Made by a program: the position numbers and the translations under genes. 64,000 nt of DNA, from NCBI GenBank assembly GCA_963738405.1, contig CAVTWJ010000004.1, positions 33,047 through 97,046 on the forward strand, in the 5' to 3' direction. Shown piece by piece: positions 8,700-21,433 of this stretch. Source of the stretch: a candidate division FCPU426 bacterium (GTDB lineage: Bacteria; Oederibacteriota; Muellerivitia; Muellerivitales; Muellerivitaceae). Position 1 is the first letter of the stretch, and every line of letters begins with the position of its first letter. The notes beneath the pieces were generated by a model, which was given only the letters and a program-made list of their open reading frames with translations, was not told the origin of the DNA and made no database searches.

Positions 8700-9866
8700 A
8701 TGATAGAGTTCGCGGAAGATGATGTGACGCAGTATCTGGCTCACTTGAAGGTTATCGGAGTGGGCGGCGGCGGATGCAACGCCGTCAATAAAATGATGGA
8801 AGCGGGTGTGGAGGGCGTGGAATGCATCGCCGCCAATACCGACTACAAGTCTCTTCGCCGAAGCAAGGCGGGGAAAATTATCCAGCTGGGCAAGACCCTG
8901 ACCAAGGGTTTGGGTTCGGGCGGAAACCCCACGATCGGCAAGGAAGCGGCCATGGAATCCACCGACGAGATCCAGAAAACCCTGGAAGGGGCGGATATGG
9001 TGGTGGTCGCCGCCGGGATGGGCGGGGGCACGGGCACCGGCGCAGCGCCGGTGGTGGCTGAAATCGCCAAGAAATTGGGGATTCTGACCGTCGCCGTCGT
9101 CAGCCGTCCGTTCGAGCACGAGGGTCCGGTCCGCAAGGCCCAGGCCGAGGACGGGCTTCGGGCCATGCTGCCCCATGTGGACGCCATCGTGGTGATCCCC
9201 AATGAGCGCATCAACCTGGTTTGCGAGCAGGATGTGGACCTGATGAGCGCCTTCGCCAAGGTGGACGAGGTGCTGGTGCAGGCCATCCAGGGCATCTCGG
9301 TGATTATCCATTCCGAGGGCGTGATCAACCGCGACTTCGCCGACGTGAAGCGCATCCTCACCGCCAAGGGAAAGGTGCTGATGGGTATGGGCGCCGCCAC
9401 CGGCGAGGATAGGGCCTTGAAGGCGGTCCAAAAGGCCGTTCACAGTCCCCTTCTAGAGGACGTGGATATCGCGGGCGCCAGCGCGGTGCTGGTATTGGTT
9501 ACCGCGGGGGCCAATTTCAGCCTGAACGAATTCAACCAGATCAACGGGTTTCTACAAAAGGCCGCAAGGCCGGGCGCGGAAATCATTCCAGGGATCGTGC
9601 GCGACGAGAACCTGAAGGACGGCCTCAGGGTCACCATCATCGCCACCGGTTTTGAGGCCGCCAAGGAAGACGCGGCCCTGGAGACGGTTTTGAACCTGGG
9701 CGAATTTTTGACCCCGGAATTCAAGACCGCCAAGGGAGCCACCGCTGCCTCCCACGCGGCGGAGGACCAGGAACCCGAAACGGAATTCAAGACGGCCGAC
9801 GGCAAGTACGAGATTCCGGCCTACTTGAGGCGCCGTTTGGCGGGAAAGCCGTTCCATAACAATTAA
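8700..9866 (+). CDS. ftsZ: Cell division protein FtsZ
   Basis: VIGVGGGGCNA, GMGGGTGTG, DFADV, VTIIATGF motifs; C-terminal peptide EIPAYLRR. Confidence 0.98.
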   Translation: MIEFAEDDVTQYLAHLKVIGVGGGGCNAVNKMMEAGVEGVECIAANTDYKSLRRSKAGKIIQLGKTLTKGLGSGGNPTIGKEAAMESTDEIQKTLEGADMVVVAAGMGGGTGTGAAPVVAEIAKKLGILTVAVVSRPFEHEGPVRKAQAEDGLRAMLPHVDAIVVIPNERINLVCEQDVDLMSAFAKVDEVLVQAIQGISVIIHSEGVINRDFADVKRILTAKGKVLMGMGAATGEDRALKAVQKAVHSPLLEDVDIAGASAVLVLVTAGANFSLNEFNQINGFLQKAARPGAEIIPGIVRDENLKDGLRVTIIATGFEAAKEDAALETVLNLGEFLTPEFKTAKGATAASHAAEDQEPETEFKTADGKYEIPAYLRRRLAGKPFHNN

Positions 9867-13346: not shown

Positions 13347-13544
13347 ATGGGCTGGTGGAAAGATTTCTGGACGGGTCTCAAAAAGGGGAAGAAAGCCCGG
13401 GTTGATAAGCGGAAAGAACAAAGCCGCAGAAAAGGCGACCGCCGCTGGATGGGCCCGGAAGGTGAAAAACCCAGGGCCAAAAAGGAGCCCCGGCGCAAGA
13501 AGGAACGGCGCAAGAAGGCCCGGCGAAAACCCCCAAAGGCCTAA
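13347..13544 (+). CDS. Small Lys/Arg-rich protein with N-terminal aromatic amphipathic segment
   Basis: AAGGAG RBS; MGWWKDFWTGL followed by a polybasic tail. Confidence 0.55.
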   Translation: MGWWKDFWTGLKKGKKARVDKRKEQSRRKGDRRWMGPEGEKPRAKKEPRRKKERRKKARRKPPKA

Positions 13545-13592
13545 TAACCCCCCTCCCCGGCCAGACATAGCCTGTGATTGGGGTGGTTAACT

Positions 13593-13792
13593 ATTTCTGT
13601 TAAACCGACCCTCAAAACTGTTAAACAAGTTCCGAAAACTGTTAAACAACACCAAAAAACTATTAAACTGCGCCAAAATTTCTGTTAAACAACCTCTAAA
13701 AACTGTTAAACTAGGCCTGATTTCTGTTAAACAGGCCTTTTTATTGGGTAAACACCGTTCTTTTATCTGTTAAAATTTAATTTCTATTAAAC
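13593..13792 (+). repeat. Phased direct-repeat array (iteron/centromere-like), core CTGTTAAAC, 21-22 bp period
   Basis: Cores start at 13597, 13618, 13639, 13660 (CTATTAAAC), 13682, 13703, 13724, 13745 (degenerate), 13767 (CTGTTAAAA) and 13784 (CTATTAAAC); each preceded by an A/T tract. Confidence 0.93.
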
Positions 13793-13814
13793 AAACCCCC
13801 TTCCTGTTCATCGC

Positions 13815-15455
13815 ATGGAGGATATATTGGAAAAAAGCAACCTTAAGTCCCTGGCATGGCTGGATAAACTGTCCGCCTTCGCCGCTGAACGGGAAAAGAA
13901 CCCCGACATCCCGCATGCCGAGCTGGCCAAGGCTCTGGGCCACGATAAGGCCATGGTGTCTTTTCTGAGGTCCCTCAACAGTTGTTTTGATCCCGCCGCC
14001 GTGGAAAGGGTCCGGCAGGCCGCCCAAGGGCCCCACCCCTTTACCCTTTCCTTTAATAGCGCCTTGGAACTGGCCAAGCTGAACGGCAAGGTCCCCGACC
14101 TGCCGGGGGCGTTTCAGGACGCCCTGGAAGTGGTCCTTGCCCGCCATCTGGCCAAAAGGCATATCAAGAACCTGGTGGATTGGATTGCCAGCGGCAAACC
14201 GGCCAAGGATTTTGACCCTAAAAAGATCAAGGGAAATAAGCAGGATTCCGACGAACCCGAAACCGACGAGGATGAGGGTGATGAGGAAGAACCCAAAGAG
14301 CAAACGGAAGATAAAAAGCAAAAGAAAGGGAAGGGTATCAGAAAGGCCCTTAAACAGCTTCAAAAAGCAGGCGCTAAAGGCCTGTTTGTCGGCCTCAAAT
14401 CCATGGCCGGTATGATCCACAGATACGTTCATGAAGCCGCCAAGACTACGGCGGGCTATTTTTGCCCCCTCCACTCACGTTCCAGCCGAAATCATGATTC
14501 CTCTACCAGGCCAAACCTCTTTAGGTTCCTGGGCCATTGGGGGCTCTACTGGTTTTGCGTCTTTTTTGCCTATAGCGGTATCGTCGGCCTCCTCAGTTAC
14601 ATCGGGCACTTTATCCCCTTCGTGGGCCCCTGGATCGACAGCGCCTGGGCGTTCCTGGTCCACCTGCTGATCCGCCTGCCCTTTTGGCTCTTGCGCCAGA
14701 TATTTGCCAAGCCCTGGCTGGTTTTCATCCTTGGCGTGGCTTTGGTTTGGTGGATTCACAAGGAATTCAAGGCCGGGTTATTGGCCACCCTTGTCGTCGC
14801 CGCCCTGTTGGCGGCGGGATGGATTTTTAGGGGAGTATGGGGGCCCTATCTGTCATCGATTGTTTCAATTTCATCACCGAAGACCGTGGAAGTACCCGTC
14901 TCCACAAAGACCTCACAACCAGCCGTCCCAGCGGTTTCGGCGATCATTTCAAAGATCGAGCCGAAGCTTACTGCAAAAAAGCCTAAAAAGCCCCTGTCTC
15001 CCGTAGCCTTGGCAAAGGGAGATAACTCGGGGGTCTTAGTTATTCCACCCGAGTCCCAGCCCAGGGTTCAGCAAGAATCGTTGTTCGTAAATGGCTTCAT
15101 TGGTGATCTTTTCGGGCCCAGCTACCACGACCTTCAGGGTTGGATGGGGAATCTGCAAAGCGAAATCACGCCAGGCTATTGGGACCAGTTTGTTTACGAA
15201 AATTACCCGCCCGCCAAGATGCAGGAAATCCAAGACAAGAAATATTTGGTTTTCTTCAAACTCTCAGATCCCGTGAAATGCGTGAGGGCGGACGTGTTAT
15301 TGGACGAGTTTCAGGTGGAAGGGGTGGTGACCACCAAAAGCGACCTGCATTATCAGGGGGAGGTGGTTTCCACCGTGCCCGTGACCGTAATTGTGGATGT
15401 GCGCCAGGGCCTGAAGGGCCTGGAAGTTTGCAAGGTTGATAGAGTCCGACCATGA
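13815..15455 (+). CDS. Membrane-anchored ParB/KorB-like HTH protein with putative extracytoplasmic C-terminal domain
   Basis: PHAELAKALGHDKAMVSFLRSL...LSFNSALELAKL resembles the ParB/Spo0J HTH region; acidic/basic linker; several hydrophobic helices at about aa 235-345; C-terminal alpha/beta domain. Confidence 0.7.
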   Translation: MEDILEKSNLKSLAWLDKLSAFAAEREKNPDIPHAELAKALGHDKAMVSFLRSLNSCFDPAAVERVRQAAQGPHPFTLSFNSALELAKLNGKVPDLPGAFQDALEVVLARHLAKRHIKNLVDWIASGKPAKDFDPKKIKGNKQDSDEPETDEDEGDEEEPKEQTEDKKQKKGKGIRKALKQLQKAGAKGLFVGLKSMAGMIHRYVHEAAKTTAGYFCPLHSRSSRNHDSSTRPNLFRFLGHWGLYWFCVFFAYSGIVGLLSYIGHFIPFVGPWIDSAWAFLVHLLIRLPFWLLRQIFAKPWLVFILGVALVWWIHKEFKAGLLATLVVAALLAAGWIFRGVWGPYLSSIVSISSPKTVEVPVSTKTSQPAVPAVSAIISKIEPKLTAKKPKKPLSPVALAKGDNSGVLVIPPESQPRVQQESLFVNGFIGDLFGPSYHDLQGWMGNLQSEITPGYWDQFVYENYPPAKMQEIQDKKYLVFFKLSDPVKCVRADVLLDEFQVEGVVTTKSDLHYQGEVVSTVPVTVIVDVRQGLKGLEVCKVDRVRP

Positions 15456-15530
15456 AAGGCCGGAGTTAATTATTGGGCGGGGATATAATCCTAAAGTGAA
15501 TCATATCTCCTGTGATTTTAGCTTAAGGTG

Positions 15531-15560
15531 TTGTCCACGATGGGGAGCCATCGTGGACAA
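15531..15560. repeat. Palindromic hairpin repeat, copy 1
   Basis: TTGTCCACGATGG-GGAG-CCATCGTGGACAA, perfect stem. Confidence 0.92.
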
Positions 15561-15668
15561 AGAAAAACGCTTGTAATACTGTTTTGATACGGTTGGCCTT
15601 GTCCTGTTTTTATGACAGAAATTGAGTCGGTGGCCAACTCTTTAGATTAATTATTATGAGGCTGATGG

Positions 15669-16541
15669 ATGACCGAAGCACCTTTGGCGGAAAAAATTGA
15701 ATTCGTCCGGTCCGAGGACCTTGCGGGCATTGAAATATTGCGGGCCGACAATACCAAGCATTGTTTCCGGTGGTTTCACCAGACCTACTCCGTCAATACG
15801 CCTTTGAATTACCAAGCCCCCGATTACCACCAATTCAAGTATCGCGGGAAAAGCTTCACGGGGTTTCCGGGAGAGACCATGATGCTCGAACCCGGGGAAA
15901 TCCACAGCGCCACTTACTTATCGAACCCGGTTACTTTTCGGGTCATCATGATTCCACCCGTAATCCTCGAACAATGCGCCTTGGAATTGGACGTCCGGGG
16001 TTCCAGGCCCCATTTAAAAACAGCGCTCTCGGACGATTCGGTTCTCTTTAAGGCCTTCCGGAATCTTCACGCCAGCATCGAAACGGATTGCACGGCCTTG
16101 GAACGTCAGTCCCGTTTTGTCTATTGCGTCAGGCATCTATTGAGGGCGGCGGCGGAAATAATTCCGAAACCCCCTCCCGCCGAAAGAAGTTTAAAGAAGG
16201 TTAAGAAGGCGGTGGAATTCTTGAAAACCCATTGGGCCGAAAATATTACACTCGACCAACTCGTCAAGGTCGTGGGTCTTAACCGATTTTATCTCTCCCG
16301 GGTTTTCACCCGGGAAATGGGAATTCCTCCGCATGCCTTCCAGATTCAATTGCGGATTGCCCGGGTCCGGGAATTCTTGAAAATGGGCGTTCCTATTTCC
16401 GAAATCGCCCTCGCTGCGGGTTTTACCGACCAATCCCATATGGACCGCCATTTCAAGAAAATTACGGGGACAACGCCCGCCCGTTATGCCGGACTAAGAT
16501 TGAAGACAAAGACCAGGGCAATAACGTCCTATAGTTTGTAA
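15669..16541 (+). CDS. AraC-family transcriptional regulator
   Basis: N-terminal cupin-like domain (PGEIHS); C-terminal double HTH (LSRVF..MGIPPH; IALAAGFTDQSHMDRHFKK..GTTP). Confidence 0.93.
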   Translation: MTEAPLAEKIEFVRSEDLAGIEILRADNTKHCFRWFHQTYSVNTPLNYQAPDYHQFKYRGKSFTGFPGETMMLEPGEIHSATYLSNPVTFRVIMIPPVILEQCALELDVRGSRPHLKTALSDDSVLFKAFRNLHASIETDCTALERQSRFVYCVRHLLRAAAEIIPKPPPAERSLKKVKKAVEFLKTHWAENITLDQLVKVVGLNRFYLSRVFTREMGIPPHAFQIQLRIARVREFLKMGVPISEIALAAGFTDQSHMDRHFKKITGTTPARYAGLRLKTKTRAITSYSL

Positions 16542-16603
16542 ATCCTTCTCCCTAGACTTCCAATGTCTCCAGTTAAAACGGAATTTTTGAGTGAGGGGTT
16601 ATC

Positions 16604-19339
16604 ATGAAGAATCAGTCCTTGTTGATTACGATCGGGCTTTTGTTTTTTGCAGCTTGCTTCTATATTTCCTGCGGAAGCGGCAGTCCCACGGCGCCGGCCC
16701 CCACCCCCGTTCCCGTGCCCACCGATACCCCTTGCGGTTATCCGGGCAATACCTGCACAGTGACCTCCACCTTTACCTCGACCGATACGCCTACCTCGAC
16801 CCATACGGCCACGACCACTTATTCGCCCACCCAAACCAATACCCCGACCCAAACCTTCACCTGGACGGTCACGAAAACCCCGACGGACACCTTTACGTCA
16901 ACTTCCACCTTTACGATAACGGATACACCGACAATAACGGATACACCCACCCACACCCACACCTACACCTTCACCTTCAGCCCCACGGAAACCAGGACTT
17001 CGACGGAAACCTTCACACCGTCCGATACCCCTACGATTACGGATACCCCCACCGTATCCAACACGCCCACCGTGACCAATACCCTGACCAGTACTACCAC
17101 GCCCACTGTCACGAACACGGTGACCTGCACGAACACCCCGACCAACACTTCCCAATATTCCTCTACCTATACACCCACGATCACTCGCACGGCCACGATC
17201 ACCTTAAGTCCCACCAATACCTCCACGTCCACGCCAGTGGGTATTTTCGTCAGCGGTTCGGTGACCTACACGGGGGCGGGAACCGTCTCGTCGGCCAACC
17301 CCATCGTGATTATCGCCTCCAATCCCCTGGCAACGAACGGGATGCCCGAAACGGTTATCACCACAAACGGAGGCTCTTATTCTTTCGCGGTGACCGGTGG
17401 GAATAATTCCATCGTCTGCTGGTACTCGAACAAAGCGCCGCTCAATTGCCTGACGAATGGCGGGGCCCCAGAGCAGGGGAATTACATGGGCTGGTACAAC
17501 GGGGGCGCCCAGCCAGTCACGATCAATATCACTTCCAGTACTTCCAACATCAACGTCACGATTGGTTCGGGCAGCGCCCTCCAGGGGGTTGCCGGGCCGG
17601 TGAGTTACCTGGGATTGAACAGCGTCGATAACAACCACCCGGTGATCGTGGAACTCTTCAAGGACAGCGGCTACAGCACCCTGGACCAGTCGATGGGCCC
17701 GGGCGAGGAAGAGTTCAGCTGTGCCCATTCGACTTACAACTTCGCCTCCAGCAACAACGGGTCGACCGAATACCTGCTGGCTTTCCAGGACAACGCGGGT
17801 ACGGGCCGCGTGAACGCCGCCAGTCAGGTTCCCGGCGGGGACCCGATGGTTTTGGCCGGATCCGTGGTGATTGGTACCTCAACGACCAAGAATATCGCTT
17901 TTCCCACTTCCACGCCGACCATGACGGTCACCTCCACCCCGATCCCCGCCCCCTACGTCTTCAAGGGAACGATCCATTACACCGGCGCAAAAAGCACTGC
18001 GGGCCAATACCTATTGATGATGGCCACCACCTGCATCAGCTGCGGCGGCAACGATATGGTCACTTGGTCCACCCCGGGAACCTCGAGCGCGGTTTCCTAT
18101 ACCCTCAACCTGCCCTCCACCGGCAGTTACGTGGTCATGGGCATGTTGTCCAATGATCCGGTCATGAACGGGCCGCCGCCGGTGGGCGCGCCTTACGGAT
18201 TCTACGGAACAGGCACTGTTTGTTTGGGAGGAACACCCACGACCCTGGCCGTGAACGGGCCTACCACGCAGACTGCCAACATGTCTTTTGGGGACAGCTG
18301 CGAACTGAATGGTGTTTCGGGGACCATCAGCTACACCGGCGCGGGCTCAGTGGGCAGTAATGGTAACTCGCTGTATGTGACGGCTTATACGGATTCAAGC
18401 TACTCGACTCAGATTTCGGGACCCGGAAACAACTCCGTGACGGTGAATGGGGGCACTTATAACGTGATCAACACCGGCGGCGCCCCCACTACCGTCTATC
18501 TCCAGGCTTATTACGGGTCCGACAATAACAACGCCCCGGCAACCTGTGACGCGGTGACCAATTTAGGCCCGGTGGCCTTCAACACCACCACGACCACCAA
18601 AAATATCACGCTTTCCGACGCCTTCCTCTACAACTGCACGAACACCCTCTCGGGCACCGTCAATTGGACAGGGGCCGGCACGGTCAACACGTCCGATCCC
18701 ATCGTCGTGCATGCCGTCCTTTGCCCCAGCGGGGATTGCAACAACCAAACGAACTACTCTTGCGCAGTGACCCAAAACGGCGGGAACTATTTCGTGGGTT
18801 TTCCCGCAGCGGGATCCGTTTACGTTTCTGAGGAATACGTGGCCACGGGAAGGATTTGGAACAATTGGGATTACAACATCGGAAGCTACGCCGAAAATGC
18901 CGATGGAACTTGTTCCATCGAGACCGGCAATAATGGAAACCCCGTCATCGTCAGCGGAGCCGCCGTTTCAAACCTGAGTTTCGGTTCCAGTTGTGGACAA
19001 CTCCAGGGTTATACCGGAACCGTGACCTATAACGGTTCCAAGGGCGCCCCGACTTGCAATGGAAACCCCGGACGCCAAATTTGGGTCTCGGCCACGTATG
19101 GAAACAGTAAAAACGAGTTTTCCTATTGGGATACTAGCGTATGCAATAACGGTGACACCTATAAGATCATCTATGGAACAACGAGCGCGAGTCTATATTT
19201 GAGGGTCTGGTTTGATGACCAGGGTACGGGTGACCACCAGCCGCAGACCGGCGAGTCTGGGACCGTAGTGGGTCCCTACGTTACGAGCACCAACCCAACC
19301 TCTATCAACATTTCCTTTGATGATTCCCAAACCTGGTAA
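16604..19339 (+). CDS. Large secreted/lipoprotein with Thr-Pro stalk and repeated Cys-containing Ig-like modules
   Basis: Signal peptide ending YISC; about 180-aa Thr/Pro tract; recurring (S)G(T/S)VxYTG module starts. Confidence 0.85.
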   Translation: MKNQSLLITIGLLFFAACFYISCGSGSPTAPAPTPVPVPTDTPCGYPGNTCTVTSTFTSTDTPTSTHTATTTYSPTQTNTPTQTFTWTVTKTPTDTFTSTSTFTITDTPTITDTPTHTHTYTFTFSPTETRTSTETFTPSDTPTITDTPTVSNTPTVTNTLTSTTTPTVTNTVTCTNTPTNTSQYSSTYTPTITRTATITLSPTNTSTSTPVGIFVSGSVTYTGAGTVSSANPIVIIASNPLATNGMPETVITTNGGSYSFAVTGGNNSIVCWYSNKAPLNCLTNGGAPEQGNYMGWYNGGAQPVTINITSSTSNINVTIGSGSALQGVAGPVSYLGLNSVDNNHPVIVELFKDSGYSTLDQSMGPGEEEFSCAHSTYNFASSNNGSTEYLLAFQDNAGTGRVNAASQVPGGDPMVLAGSVVIGTSTTKNIAFPTSTPTMTVTSTPIPAPYVFKGTIHYTGAKSTAGQYLLMMATTCISCGGNDMVTWSTPGTSSAVSYTLNLPSTGSYVVMGMLSNDPVMNGPPPVGAPYGFYGTGTVCLGGTPTTLAVNGPTTQTANMSFGDSCELNGVSGTISYTGAGSVGSNGNSLYVTAYTDSSYSTQISGPGNNSVTVNGGTYNVINTGGAPTTVYLQAYYGSDNNNAPATCDAVTNLGPVAFNTTTTTKNITLSDAFLYNCTNTLSGTVNWTGAGTVNTSDPIVVHAVLCPSGDCNNQTNYSCAVTQNGGNYFVGFPAAGSVYVSEEYVATGRIWNNWDYNIGSYAENADGTCSIETGNNGNPVIVSGAAVSNLSFGSSCGQLQGYTGTVTYNGSKGAPTCNGNPGRQIWVSATYGNSKNEFSYWDTSVCNNGDTYKIIYGTTSASLYLRVWFDDQGTGDHQPQTGESGTVVGPYVTSTNPTSINISFDDSQTW

Positions 19340-19350
19340 AAGCTTTTGGC

Positions 19351-19388
19351 AAAAAGGCCCGTCCCTTCATTGGGACGGGCCTTTTTTT
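19351..19388. terminator. Bidirectional intrinsic terminator
   Basis: AAAAAGGCCCGTCCC-TTCATT-GGGACGGGCCTTTTTTT just after the stop at 19339. Confidence 0.92.
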
Positions 19389-19444
19389 ATTTGGAGTGGG
19401 CGTCAAGGAACCAGTCGCCGGAAAATATCATGGTTGTATATAGG

Positions 19445-19453
19445 TGATATACT
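19445..19453 (+). promoter_or_regulatory. Candidate extended -10 promoter
   Basis: TG-A-TATACT upstream of the hairpin cluster and low-GC genes; no good -35 seen. Confidence 0.35.
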
Positions 19454-19644
19454 GGCCGCATTGAAAAACCCGGCAGTTGAAACGGGATATTAACGGCAGG
19501 GCGTTATTGAACGGGATGGTTATCGATGGAACCTGAAGTCCAATAATAAAAAAACCGGGTCTGGTCCCACGCTCTCCAGCGTGGAACAGGGCTCAATTCA
19601 CCGCAGAATTGAGCAGGGATTAACCATTATTAGTACGAGTTAGG

Positions 19645-19672
19645 TGTTCACGATGGGGACCCGTCGTGGACA
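19645..19672. repeat. Palindromic hairpin repeat, copy 2
   Basis: TGTTCACGATGG-GGAC-CCGTCGTGGACA, with two T.G wobbles. Confidence 0.88.
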
Positions 19673-19712
19673 GGTAACATGGATTGGGAAACATTGAAAG
19701 AGGATGTGAAGT

Positions 19713-20117
19713 TTGGCAAAAAATGAAAAAATCCAAATATTATTATTCCCTTTTCTGTTCCTTGGGTTAATGATTATTTTTCCATATATAAGTTTTGGAT
19801 TTAATAAATGGCTTGGGAGAAATTTAGGGAATTTTTTATTTTTTCTACCGCAATATGTATTTCCATATGACGGGTATTTCAGAAGTGGCCCGTTTGATGA
19901 AACTGCCCACTTAAGTCTTCATCCGCTTGGTTTGCCAGGATGGATTGCATCGTTGATTCATTGGACGATTGTCATTTTTATTTATTATTGGCTTACTCGA
20001 AAATTATCCTTTGGAAAATCACTTCTAATGTTTTGCTTTTTGGCTATTTCATCATTAGTAATTGTCTATTTTTCATTGGGGGTTTTTGGATGGAATTTCA
20101 GCATTGATGGACCATAA
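19713..20117 (+). CDS. Low-GC hypothetical membrane protein
   Basis: 134 aa, about 3 hydrophobic helices; TTG start after GAGG; AT-rich codon use. Confidence 0.7.
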   Translation: MAKNEKIQILLFPFLFLGLMIIFPYISFGFNKWLGRNLGNFLFFLPQYVFPYDGYFRSGPFDETAHLSLHPLGLPGWIASLIHWTIVIFIYYWLTRKLSFGKSLLMFCFLAISSLVIVYFSLGVFGWNFSIDGP

Positions 20118-20130
20118 AAAAGGAATTCTC

Positions 20131-20160
20131 TTGTCCACGACGGGGACCCGTCGTGGACAA
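20131..20160. repeat. Palindromic hairpin repeat, copy 3
   Basis: TTGTCCACGACGG-GGAC-CCGTCGTGGACAA, perfect stem. Confidence 0.93.
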
Positions 20161-20202
20161 AGAAAAAAGGCGTAAAGTGTTATCGGCAATAGGAGATCGA
20201 AA

Positions 20203-20538
20203 ATGGATCGCAAAATAATCGCCGAAGTTATATTCGCATTTTTAGGAGTATGGATGATCGCCCTCCCTTCATTCTTTTTAAAGTTCCTCGCAAAGGGGGC
20301 ACAGTTTAATTATGAAAATTTAAAATCAAATTTAGATAGGATTAAAAGGGAAGGGCCGGCAAATCTGAACGAAAAATTAGCGACGAAATTTGGTCCCAAC
20401 ATCTTTCAAAAAATCTCGATGAATAAGGATGTTTATAAACCCCCGACGGAAACACAAAAGTGGTTAATGAGATCATTGGGGATATTATTCGTTTGCATAT
20501 CTCTTGGCGTTTTATTCAATCTGATTGGGGTTAGATGA
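20203..20538 (+). CDS. Low-GC hypothetical membrane protein (2 TM)
   Basis: AGGAG RBS; hydrophobic N- and C-terminal helices. Confidence 0.75.
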   Translation: MDRKIIAEVIFAFLGVWMIALPSFFLKFLAKGAQFNYENLKSNLDRIKREGPANLNEKLATKFGPNIFQKISMNKDVYKPPTETQKWLMRSLGILFVCISLGVLFNLIGVR

Positions 20539-20602
20539 AACATTGTTAATTTTTCTCTCCAGTTTCTTAACCGATTTGAGGACCGTTTGGTTGAAGCTTG
20601 TT

Positions 20603-20630
20603 TGTCCACGACGGGGACCCATCGTGGACA
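20603..20630. repeat. Palindromic hairpin repeat, copy 4
   Basis: TGTCCACGACGG-GGAC-CCATCGTGGACA, one mismatch. Confidence 0.9.
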
Positions 20631-20687
20631 GAAAAATAAAGTGTAAGTATTTCATTTGGACGGTATTACGGGAAAAAGGATTAGAAT

Positions 20688-21221
20688 TTGGAAACTAAAA
20701 CGGAAATAAATCCAAACGAATTTAGAACACTTTACCGTCCCCGTTTTGCTGATTGGCTCATTGCTTGTCTTTTTTTCTTAACTTTTGGTTTGGGACTTCC
20801 ATCTATGTTGGTTGAAAAAAGTTTGGATGTTTGGGGAAAGAACATTTTATCTTTGGATTCGATTGAAAGGTTTTTTGGGTGCGTTGTAGTAATCGGAATG
20901 GAAATAATTTTATTGAAAGAATGTTTAAAATCTTGGCTTTCTGAAGTTAGTGTTAATTCTATGAGACTAAAATTAAAAATTCTTTCTTTTGAAAAAATAA
21001 TTGAATGGAAAACTCTTCATTCTATTTCTCTTTCGCCCAATAGCTGGGGAACAGTTGATTTGTATTTGTTTTTTCCAAATAAAAAGAAAATTAGGTTTTG
21101 GTCGGCCTTTGGTCCTGCAAGTAGATTTATCTACCAAGGTATAAAAGAATTCAGACCTGATCTGATTGATGAACTGAAAAAGCAGGGGAAAATGCATGAG
21201 TATAAAGGTGTATTTATTTAA
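20688..21221 (+). CDS. Low-GC hypothetical membrane protein (2 TM plus possible PH-like soluble domain)
   Basis: 177 aa; two hydrophobic helices then a beta-rich tail with IEWKTLHSI; TTG start after AAGGA. Confidence 0.7.
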   Translation: METKTEINPNEFRTLYRPRFADWLIACLFFLTFGLGLPSMLVEKSLDVWGKNILSLDSIERFFGCVVVIGMEIILLKECLKSWLSEVSVNSMRLKLKILSFEKIIEWKTLHSISLSPNSWGTVDLYLFFPNKKKIRFWSAFGPASRFIYQGIKEFRPDLIDELKKQGKMHEYKGVFI

Positions 21222-21235
21222 ACCAGATACTTAAC

Positions 21236-21283
21236 CTGTCCACGACGGGGACCCGTCGTGGACAGTCAGTACCACTGACTGTC
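21236..21283. repeat. Palindromic hairpin repeat copy 5 with overlapping second palindrome
   Basis: CTGTCCACGACGG-GGAC-CCGTCGTGGACAG (21236-21265) overlaps GACAGTCAGT-ACC-ACTGACTGTC (21261-21283). Confidence 0.92.
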
Positions 21284-21433
21284 TTATTCGAAAATGTTTC
21301 CCCGGAACTTTCTAGCTTTCTCAAAAAATTTTAGGGGAATGATAAACCTGTACTTACCTGGTAAAGTTACCCCCTGTCCGCAAAAGGAACCCGTTGTGAA
21401 CAAAGAAAATGCCGATAAGGAGCCTTCCAAACC

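Follow-up and report, generated by a model that had tools for sequence, protein, structure and literature searches.

A clamp-less, membrane-spanning ParB-type protein encoded next to its own phased direct-repeat array: a member of an apparently undescribed family

The window considered here, by which we mean the whole stretch of 64,000 nucleotides analysed, contains a gene for a protein with a ParB-type DNA-binding domain and a predicted membrane region, directly preceded by an array of short direct repeats spaced at two helical turns. This arrangement raises the question whether the protein binds the array and, if so, whether it does so to regulate its own gene, to hold the DNA at the membrane, or both. 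An initial annotation, made from the letters alone, had proposed both, and had linked the anchoring to the dcw operon situated just upstream. Comparison of the gene with its relatives indicates that it belongs to an apparently undescribed family of membrane-spanning ParB relatives without the sliding clamp. The positions of the features are collected in Table 1.

Table 1. Features of the locus (window positions)
Feature	Position	Strand	Basis or remark
Direct-repeat array, ten units	13593..13792	+	Core positions and family pattern
Sigma70-like promoter candidate TAAACA-16-TAAAAT, with TG	13749..13776	+	Degenerate repeats 8 and 9
Shine-Dalgarno GGAGG and probable TTG start at 13827	13817..13829	+	Sequence, paralogs, database start
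542-aa gene, clamp-less ParB-type protein	13827..15455	+	Predicted structures, database protein
ParB/Noc/Spo0J-type DNA-binding domain	13848..14228	+	AF2, Foldseek/VIA, alignment, PDB profile
Helix-turn-helix (HTH)	about 13908-13973	+	Within the DNA-binding domain
Hydrophobic membrane region	14532..14840	+	Hydropathy only
NTF2-like domain, VirB8/DotI/IcmL/TraM type	15030..15452	+	AF2, Foldseek, VIA
Accessory insert of ~7.9 kb, headed by array and gene	13545..21430	+	Orthologous sites of relatives; ends approximate

The spacing originally described, nine cores at 21, 21, 21, 22, 21, 21, 21 and 22 bp and a tenth 17 bp further on, is borne out by the core coordinates, the ten 9-bp cores starting at 13597, 13618, 13639, 13660, 13682, 13703, 13724, 13745, 13767 and 13784. 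The core CTGTTAAAC is exact in six of the ten units, carries one mismatch in three and three mismatches in the eighth. At the window array each unit comprises a 4-nt A/T run, the core and a variable spacer of 8 nt, as had been noted; this make-up does not extend to the family, where A-tracts occur in at least half of the units in 9 of 40 arrays and array GC content ranges from 26 to 65%, which rules out intrinsic A-tract bending as a family trait. Shuffling of the array region in dinucleotide blocks (2000 rounds) produced phased hexamer chains of at most 3 copies, compared with 7 in the actual sequence. The genome-wide scan suggested in the initial annotation found 28 exact cores in 3.18 Mb, with the window array as their sole cluster; as the genome contains no second cluster of this motif, there is no regulon for the window paralog. 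The core alone is not diagnostic: in the converse test, none of the 54 metagenome matches and none of the 10 viral ones to a triplet of phased cores was near a family gene, most of them being coding tandem repeats. Unrelated GC-rich metagenome contigs (L153, L166, L167, L169, L181, L198 and L203) also contain this core, in three 22-bp repeats that look iteron-like by eye. The array thus described is predicted to be a probable set of same-face binding sites for the downstream protein.

The final core ends 22 bp 5' of the ATG at 13815, exactly the distance given before, but this ATG is probably not the start of the gene. The start is more probably the TTG at 13827, because a GGAGG lies 5 nt upstream, the database protein begins there, and the conserved Trp then becomes residue 11, its position in 45 of the 64 representatives scored; the spacing between Shine-Dalgarno sequence and TTG is identical in the paralogs. 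Repeats 8-10 overlap the sigma70-like site and repeat 10 covers the expected transcription-start region. Taken alone, the promoter candidate of the window is not above chance (2 found, 1.6 expected). Across the family, a promoter-like site with a score of at least 9 was present in 20 of 40 loci, 14 times just before the array and 6 times at its 3' edge, the corresponding numbers for control windows being 2 of 120 (coding) and 4 of 40 (antisense). One genome has eight loci, and at each of them the 5' leader is taken up by the array. Either layout, an array overlapping the promoter or one within the leader, would repress the gene. The window array, upstream of its own gene and overlapping a promoter-like site, is compatible with the autoregulation originally claimed.

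The 542-aa protein is organized, in this order, into a DNA-binding domain, a charged linker, a membrane segment, a linker rich in Pro, Ser and Thr, and a VirB8/DotI-like domain. The N-terminal domain, modelled by AF2 with a pLDDT of 95.7, has the ParB/Noc/Spo0J DNA-binding fold, although the scores of these closest structures are weak by themselves (Foldseek E 0.02; VIA Z 7.9, rmsd 3.7, 100 aligned residues): Foldseek returned nothing at E ≤ 0.001, and a PDB sequence search with a profile of the clamp-less proteins alone gave no relevant match. The link becomes firm through relatives that bear a ParB_N domain, as judged by sequence comparison. Indeed, a 22-row profile built from 19 such relatives and 3 clamp-less proteins matches Noc at E 8e-25, with an alignment spanning the HTH; a profile-profile match of 99.9% shares three rows with this profile and is hence not independent. 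The earlier reading of the N-terminus as an HTH fold leaving no room for ParB_N is therefore upheld by the AF2 model, Foldseek/VIA and the sister-class profile: the N-terminal CTPase (ParB_N) domain is missing, the DNA-binding domain begins at residue 8 and PF02195 gives no match. Residues K41 and N77 align with Q158 and R186 of Noc (R173 and G201 of ParB), which are specificity positions according to the available text of PMC7383237. The parS half-site described there, GTGAAACA, is identical at 7 of 8 positions to GTTAAACA of the window core.

The membrane region was delineated by hydropathy only, so that the presence of DNA-binding domain and transmembrane (TM) segment in one chain is to be read with this in mind; an odd number of spans with the N-terminus inside and the C-terminus outside seems the probable topology, and many homologues are single-pass by the same measure. 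The C-terminal domain (pLDDT 94.5) is predicted to be extracytoplasmic and resembles DotI, IcmL, TraM and VirB8 (Foldseek E 3e-6 to an IcmL-like protein and TM 0.77 to DotI; VIA Z 16.6, rmsd 2.2, 127 aligned residues). It shares with VirB8, DotI and TraM the fold and the bitopic position; it differs from them in being fused to a DNA-binding domain, in lying outside a T4SS locus and in its identity of about 14%. Pfam and NCBIfam contain no curated match for the 542-aa protein, and the Atlas search returned no usable whole-protein match, all leads for the C-terminal domain remaining below 0.9. Public sequencing runs shared at most 9% of words; contigs from RNA libraries touched the neighbouring genes and not the window gene, which says nothing on expression or habitat.

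A word search for homologues, in which 8000 candidates were scored, gave at least 7 matches, 6 of them in the genome of the window itself. This genome also encodes a separate canonical ParB, and holds six clamp-less paralogs together with 11 having ParB_N-type N-termini, five of which pass the PF02195 cut-off. An unbiased scan for phased chains of 20-23 bp identified 12 loci genome-wide: six are just upstream of the six clamp-less genes, five are orphans and one is coding low-complexity sequence. Clamp-less loci number 41, in 9 of the 31 genomes of one bacterial family. Among 68 genomes of other families no locus fell within the clamp-less score range, weak matches being obtained in three, one of which was checked and is clamp-bearing; IMG/VR contained no relatives, and tblastn on 72,556 plasmids gave no match. 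Under a fixed rule, an upstream array is present at 39 of the 41 clamp-less loci, in keeping with the prediction that homologues should carry such arrays, against 1 of the 46 clamp-bearing loci that have 300 bp or more of upstream sequence, and that one scores at the threshold. Of the two exceptions among the clamp-less loci, one shows a degenerate array of 5 copies, and in the other an IS110 gene is situated 312 bp upstream. The period averages 21.38 bp over 262 intervals regardless of motif or GC content; the regularly spaced arrays hold 5-22 copies, and four arrays have 43-bp units. On the other hand, a palindrome of ~23 bp within the coding region, just 3' of the HTH, which beats codon shuffles at p ≤ 0.05, was recovered in 29 of 50 clamp-bearing but only 3 of 39 clamp-less genes, and the window locus has direct repeats only, the palindromic parS-type site being missing. 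In the clamp-bearing paralogs of the genome of the window (on C6, C16, C19, C22, C23, C1, C5 and C14) the HTH is followed by an in-frame palindrome that differs from paralog to paralog, and at L025 the in-frame palindrome is amplified four-fold with a 42-bp period.

In a midpoint-rooted FastTree phylogeny the clamp-less genes fall into one clade (0.85), and the median identity in the family is 46%. Their copy number varies from 0 to 8 per genome, several relatives that are 96-99% complete having none. The dN/dS ratio is 0.19-0.34 in three gap-free close pairs, these being the ones kept out of seven, with four out-of-register pairs left aside; frameshifted members also occur. In most clamp-less homologues the VirB8-like outer domain is replaced or absent: it was assigned in 8 entries, and a second type with weak PDZ similarity (E 0.08 and weaker) in about 25. 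Five members stop within 8-30 aa of the TM segment and retain arrays of 8-16 copies; since members without the outer domain keep long arrays, HTH, TM segment and array constitute the core of the system, which can do without the outer domain. At C14:238630-238770, a paralog ending in the other outer domain is followed by a stranded 3' fragment of the VirB8-like domain, a trace of domain swapping. The five orphan arrays are located at C2:116400, C23:368978, C18:7648, C2:197740 and C1:41835. Those on C23 and C18 correspond in motif to two of the clamp-less paralogs, the one on C23 being followed by a 5' remnant of a family gene (E 0.013), which would fit gene loss rather than a regulon; C2:197740 and C1:41835 have a motif and flanks in common.

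Motifs vary from one paralog to another, and recognition helices of similar sequence are repeatedly found with motif ends that resemble each other (for instance S[QH]IT with GGCA, KSQV with CGGAA, M[VL]S with TAAAC). Motifs were registered from the DNA only, and 30 of 39 arrays were kept, those left out being seven with 43-bp or irregular units, one mis-registered and one degenerate. The 3' part of the motif correlates with the recognition helix (partial rho 0.255, permutation p 0.001) and not with the rest of the domain (rho 0.015), values to be read knowing that the motif was split post hoc, with the table already seen, and that the permutations ignore the tree. The best two of 116 sliding windows coincide with the recognition helix, and a third, nearly equal, lies just before the HTH. 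In an earlier whole-motif test without registration, overall relatedness (rho 0.267) had come out ahead of the helix (partial 0.098). Nearest-neighbour prediction recovers 2.70 of 4 motif bases when based on the helix and only slightly fewer, 2.43, when based on the remainder of the domain, the random value being 1.75. When the helix columns are left out of the tree, the motif classes are scattered on it (9 changes, against 9.6 after shuffling); for two motif classes a single origin was not rejected by AU tests (p 0.17 and 0.23). The comparison of homologues called for in the initial annotation thus indicates that motif 3' end and recognition helix co-vary modestly, and the protein likely binds its own cognate array. 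Within-genome orthogonality of the motifs was not found: of 9 motif bases, 4.47 are shared within a genome and 4.32 between genomes, with one identical pair, and as motifs are no more distinct within genomes, this speaks against selection for separate centromeres.

Besides array and gene, the insert carries an AraC regulator, a 911-aa Thr/Pro-rich protein and three small AT-rich membrane genes. No match to it was found at the orthologous site in at least 11 of 12 relative loci, and the site occupied by a second paralog, behind argS, is empty in all five relatives compared. A small basic ORF after pgeF (13347-13544), conserved in relatives, marks the left edge of the insert. The window gene is 3.9 kb downstream of ftsZ, and the proposed tie between anchoring and the dcw operon did not hold: the insert is missing from relatives, five clamp-less paralogs occupy unrelated sites and near-complete relatives lack the class. 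The position is incidental, because the insert is missing in relatives and neighbours are unrelated between loci. These neighbours, often toxin-antitoxin (TA) pairs, IS elements or AT-rich genes, include no ParA, Rep, integrase or T4SS partner beside 35 relative and 17 own-genome loci, 88 of the 128 neighbour ORFs at the relative loci having been scanned with Pfam; VirB4/VirB6 machinery was likewise not among them. Neither a circular form of the module nor end repeats common to the modules were seen. The genome, 91% complete, gave no match to TraG/VirB4 (PF19044) and has only one VirD4-like gene, situated on an unrelated integrated element (C9:121534-126028) with an integrase and a probable relaxase (by eye); AT-rich defence-like genes follow this element, in which no mating-pair genes were seen.

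Several further repeats were encountered in and around these loci. A 26-bp oriented palindrome (GTCCACGAC-GGGGACCC-GTCGTGGAC) occurs in the window at 15531-15560, 19647, 20132, 20604 and 21238, where it separates small, mostly AT-rich genes in the manner of integron cassette sites. It has 48 copies in the genome, clustered and mostly co-oriented with neighbouring genes; of the 31 genomes of the family, 24 contain it, the reversed control giving 0. The palindrome forms a stable hairpin, has no match in Rfam, and no adjacent recombinase was found. One DNA contig contains a weak joint that skips 20149-21245 and may be from another organism. In the genome of the window, 5 of 17 family genes have the palindrome within 3 kb, against 92 of 2660 genes; in relatives this applies to 1 of 32 family genes, and as the link is not seen there the palindrome was treated as separate from the module. 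An in-frame element of ~66 bp, sometimes in tandem, lies inside coding sequences (C6 near 9290-9430 and other family genes), with 9 matches of at least 40 nt, 7 of them inside called genes. Runs of REP-like hairpins are shared 3' of the stop codons of several paralogs (C5, C6, C14, C19 and C23). The stretches C18:5595-6700 and C22:214100-217700, of 66-75% GC or otherwise foreign-looking, one of them with three integrase-family genes at a contig end, represent either recent acquisition or misassembly.

The window system has features of several known systems. As in ParABS, the protein has a ParB-type HTH DNA-binding domain; unlike ParABS, there is no ParB_N, no palindromic parS and no nearby ParA. 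Noc links specific DNA to the membrane, as we propose for the window protein, and its CTP clamp loads at a palindrome (available text of PMC8429893). Noc employs an N-terminal, CTP-gated amphipathic helix and dispersed NBS palindromes, whereas the window protein would use an integral TM region with an outer domain, no clamp, and direct half-site repeats at one locus; moreover, the family is multicopy and accessory, with a different motif for each paralog, in contrast to Noc and ParB. TM fusions of Noc do tether DNA, since chromosomes are bisected when Noc is given a synthetic TM helix, and permanent TM tethers are harmful in B. subtilis (both from the available text of PMC8429893). The F-plasmid SopB/sopC pair likewise combines a ParB-family protein with an adjacent array, sopC consisting of 12 repeats of 43 bp (PMC3177203, available part), a unit length recurring in the four family arrays mentioned above. 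Its units, however, contain 16-bp inverted repeats and SopA is needed, whereas the family has upstream direct half-sites at ~21.4 bp and no ATPase, and the window protein, unlike SopB, spans the membrane. StbA of R388 binds phased direct repeats 5' of its own gene, represses this gene and does not depend on a plasmid-encoded NTPase for DNA segregation (bioRxiv 10.1101/2022.04.29.490116, main text). The window system shares with StbA/stbS and the pSK1 Par type a direct-repeat array upstream of its own gene that overlaps a promoter-like site; StbA differs by its PadR-like HTH, 11-bp period and plasmid location, and the word 'membrane' appears nowhere in the main text of that paper. RicO of S. 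aureus and RocS of S. pneumoniae, as far as their available descriptions go, bridge DNA and membrane by an N-terminal DNA-binding domain and a C-terminal membrane anchor, the layout proposed here, but are single-copy conserved chromosome factors with amphipathic helices and no private upstream array. By their defining features, the window system falls outside ParABS, Noc, T4SS subunits and iteron replicons.

The reading that we favour, with a probability of roughly 55%, is that of a self-limiting, cis-acting anchor between accessory DNA and the membrane, in which one gene and its private binding array would form a self-contained module. The ancestor may have been a membrane-spanning ParB (CTPase clamp, HTH, TM segment and outer domain) with an in-gene palindrome, from which one lineage would have dropped the clamp, and with it CTP-driven loading and spreading, and gained 5-22 direct half-sites two helical turns apart. 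Newly made protein would insert into the inner membrane near its own gene, and single HTH domains would occupy cognate half-sites, all on one face of the DNA, such a row being what proteins held in the membrane plane would need. A full array would block the promoter or leader of the gene, capping the number of proteins per locus, and the locus would be held at the membrane because the protein bound to the array spans it. The two classes would then represent two ways of loading many copies onto the protein's own DNA, by CTP clamp and palindrome or by same-face half-sites. Cognate binding with autorepression is the part of which we are most confident, and appears quite probable. That anchoring or tethering is the selected function seems somewhat doubtful; the likeliest purpose, ParA-free anchoring or maintenance of the accompanying accessory DNA, is the weakest step, as no replicon, circle or orthogonality signal was found. 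In favour of the anchor we count the partition of arrays between the classes (39/41 against 1/46), the constant period, the opposite partition of in-gene palindromes, the co-variation with the recognition helix, the promoter position, the single motif cluster, the arrays kept by members without an outer domain, the dN/dS ratios and the tethering by Noc-TM fusions; against it count the modest and partly post hoc nature of the co-variation, the whole-motif, nearest-neighbour and AU results, the lack of within-genome orthogonality, the lack of any recurring replicon, ParA, integrase or T4SS gene, and the harm done by permanent TM tethers in B. subtilis. A wider version seems rather unlikely to us, according to which the family would consist of lineage-wide programmable DNA-membrane anchors descended from a ParB-VirB8 fusion, CTP clamp and single internal palindrome having given way to a two-turn-phased half-site array that templates a row or ring of membrane proteins on the gene's own DNA, each paralog having its own address and using it to hold or segregate accessory DNA, or to pass it on to an envelope machine, with no need of ParA.

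For the place of the arrays at the promoter, autoregulation is by itself a sufficient explanation. The most serious competitor is a transmembrane one-component regulator (TTR) of the ToxR/CadC kind, whose outer domain would sense an envelope signal while the HTH controls the gene itself and downstream accessory genes, membrane contact of the DNA being a by-product. Cytoplasmic HTH, TM segment and outer domain are laid out as in these proteins, the outer domains are exchangeable, the arrays lie at promoters, the next gene, often a TA, IS or AT-rich gene, is on the same strand at 27 of 35 relative loci, and TTRs also expand lineage-specifically (PMC10269533, main text). The window domain is ParB-derived, however, and the main text of that survey mentions neither ParB nor KorB; no target beyond the gene's own array and no downstream gene common to the 35 relative loci was found; 5-22 sites exceed an operator's need, members without the outer domain keep long arrays and the site of the sister class is inside the coding region, so that we regard this explanation as unlikely, though worth keeping in mind. 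A self-silencing hitch-hiker or relic of a conjugative element, a ParB fused to VirB8 that is now copied from one accessory region to another, brings the host no benefit and is kept from doing harm by its array, would account for the VirB8/DotI fold, the patchy, multicopy distribution, the sites differing between genomes, the members with frameshifts and the orphan arrays, one of which retains the 5' remnant of a gene. It is made improbable by purifying selection in three pairs, by a radiation as deep as this one with its phasing maintained, and by the lack of shared terminal repeats or a mobility gene.

The outer domain being closest to DotI, TraM and VirB8, one might also think of a defence or exclusion factor, a VirB8-like decoy jamming incoming conjugation or injection machines at a dose set by the array, and this would suit neighbours that are often TA or defence-like and a genome whose only VirD4-like gene is on an unrelated element; yet only about 8 of 41 clamp-less members have the domain and NTF2-like folds are common, which makes it very improbable. 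Hardly credible, finally, are the ideas that the system serves specifically to anchor the dcw region or that it is a replication origin of the iteron type. The former could draw on the proximity of ftsZ and is largely refuted by synteny, the insert being absent from relatives and paralogs being elsewhere. As to the latter, iterons have a repeat period similar to 21-22 bp and similar triplets occur in the unrelated contigs cited above, but the adjacent protein is of ParB type and not a winged-helix Rep, and no Rep or DnaA-box context was seen.

In the literature covered, which excludes subscription journals, we found no description of this family or of a fusion between ParB-type and VirB8-like domains. 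The family provides about 40 natural pairs of protein and site, with different motifs on one ParB-type fold and the likely site adjoining each gene, and thus far more specificity switches than the ParB/Noc pair. It also offers a natural comparison for the role of the CTP clamp, a clamp with one palindrome on one side and an array without clamp on the other. Pinning of DNA to the membrane is a long-standing idea with few integral-membrane examples; if tethering is true, the family would represent a new and simple way of attaching selected DNA to the membrane of bacteria, and would supply tools for locus tagging.
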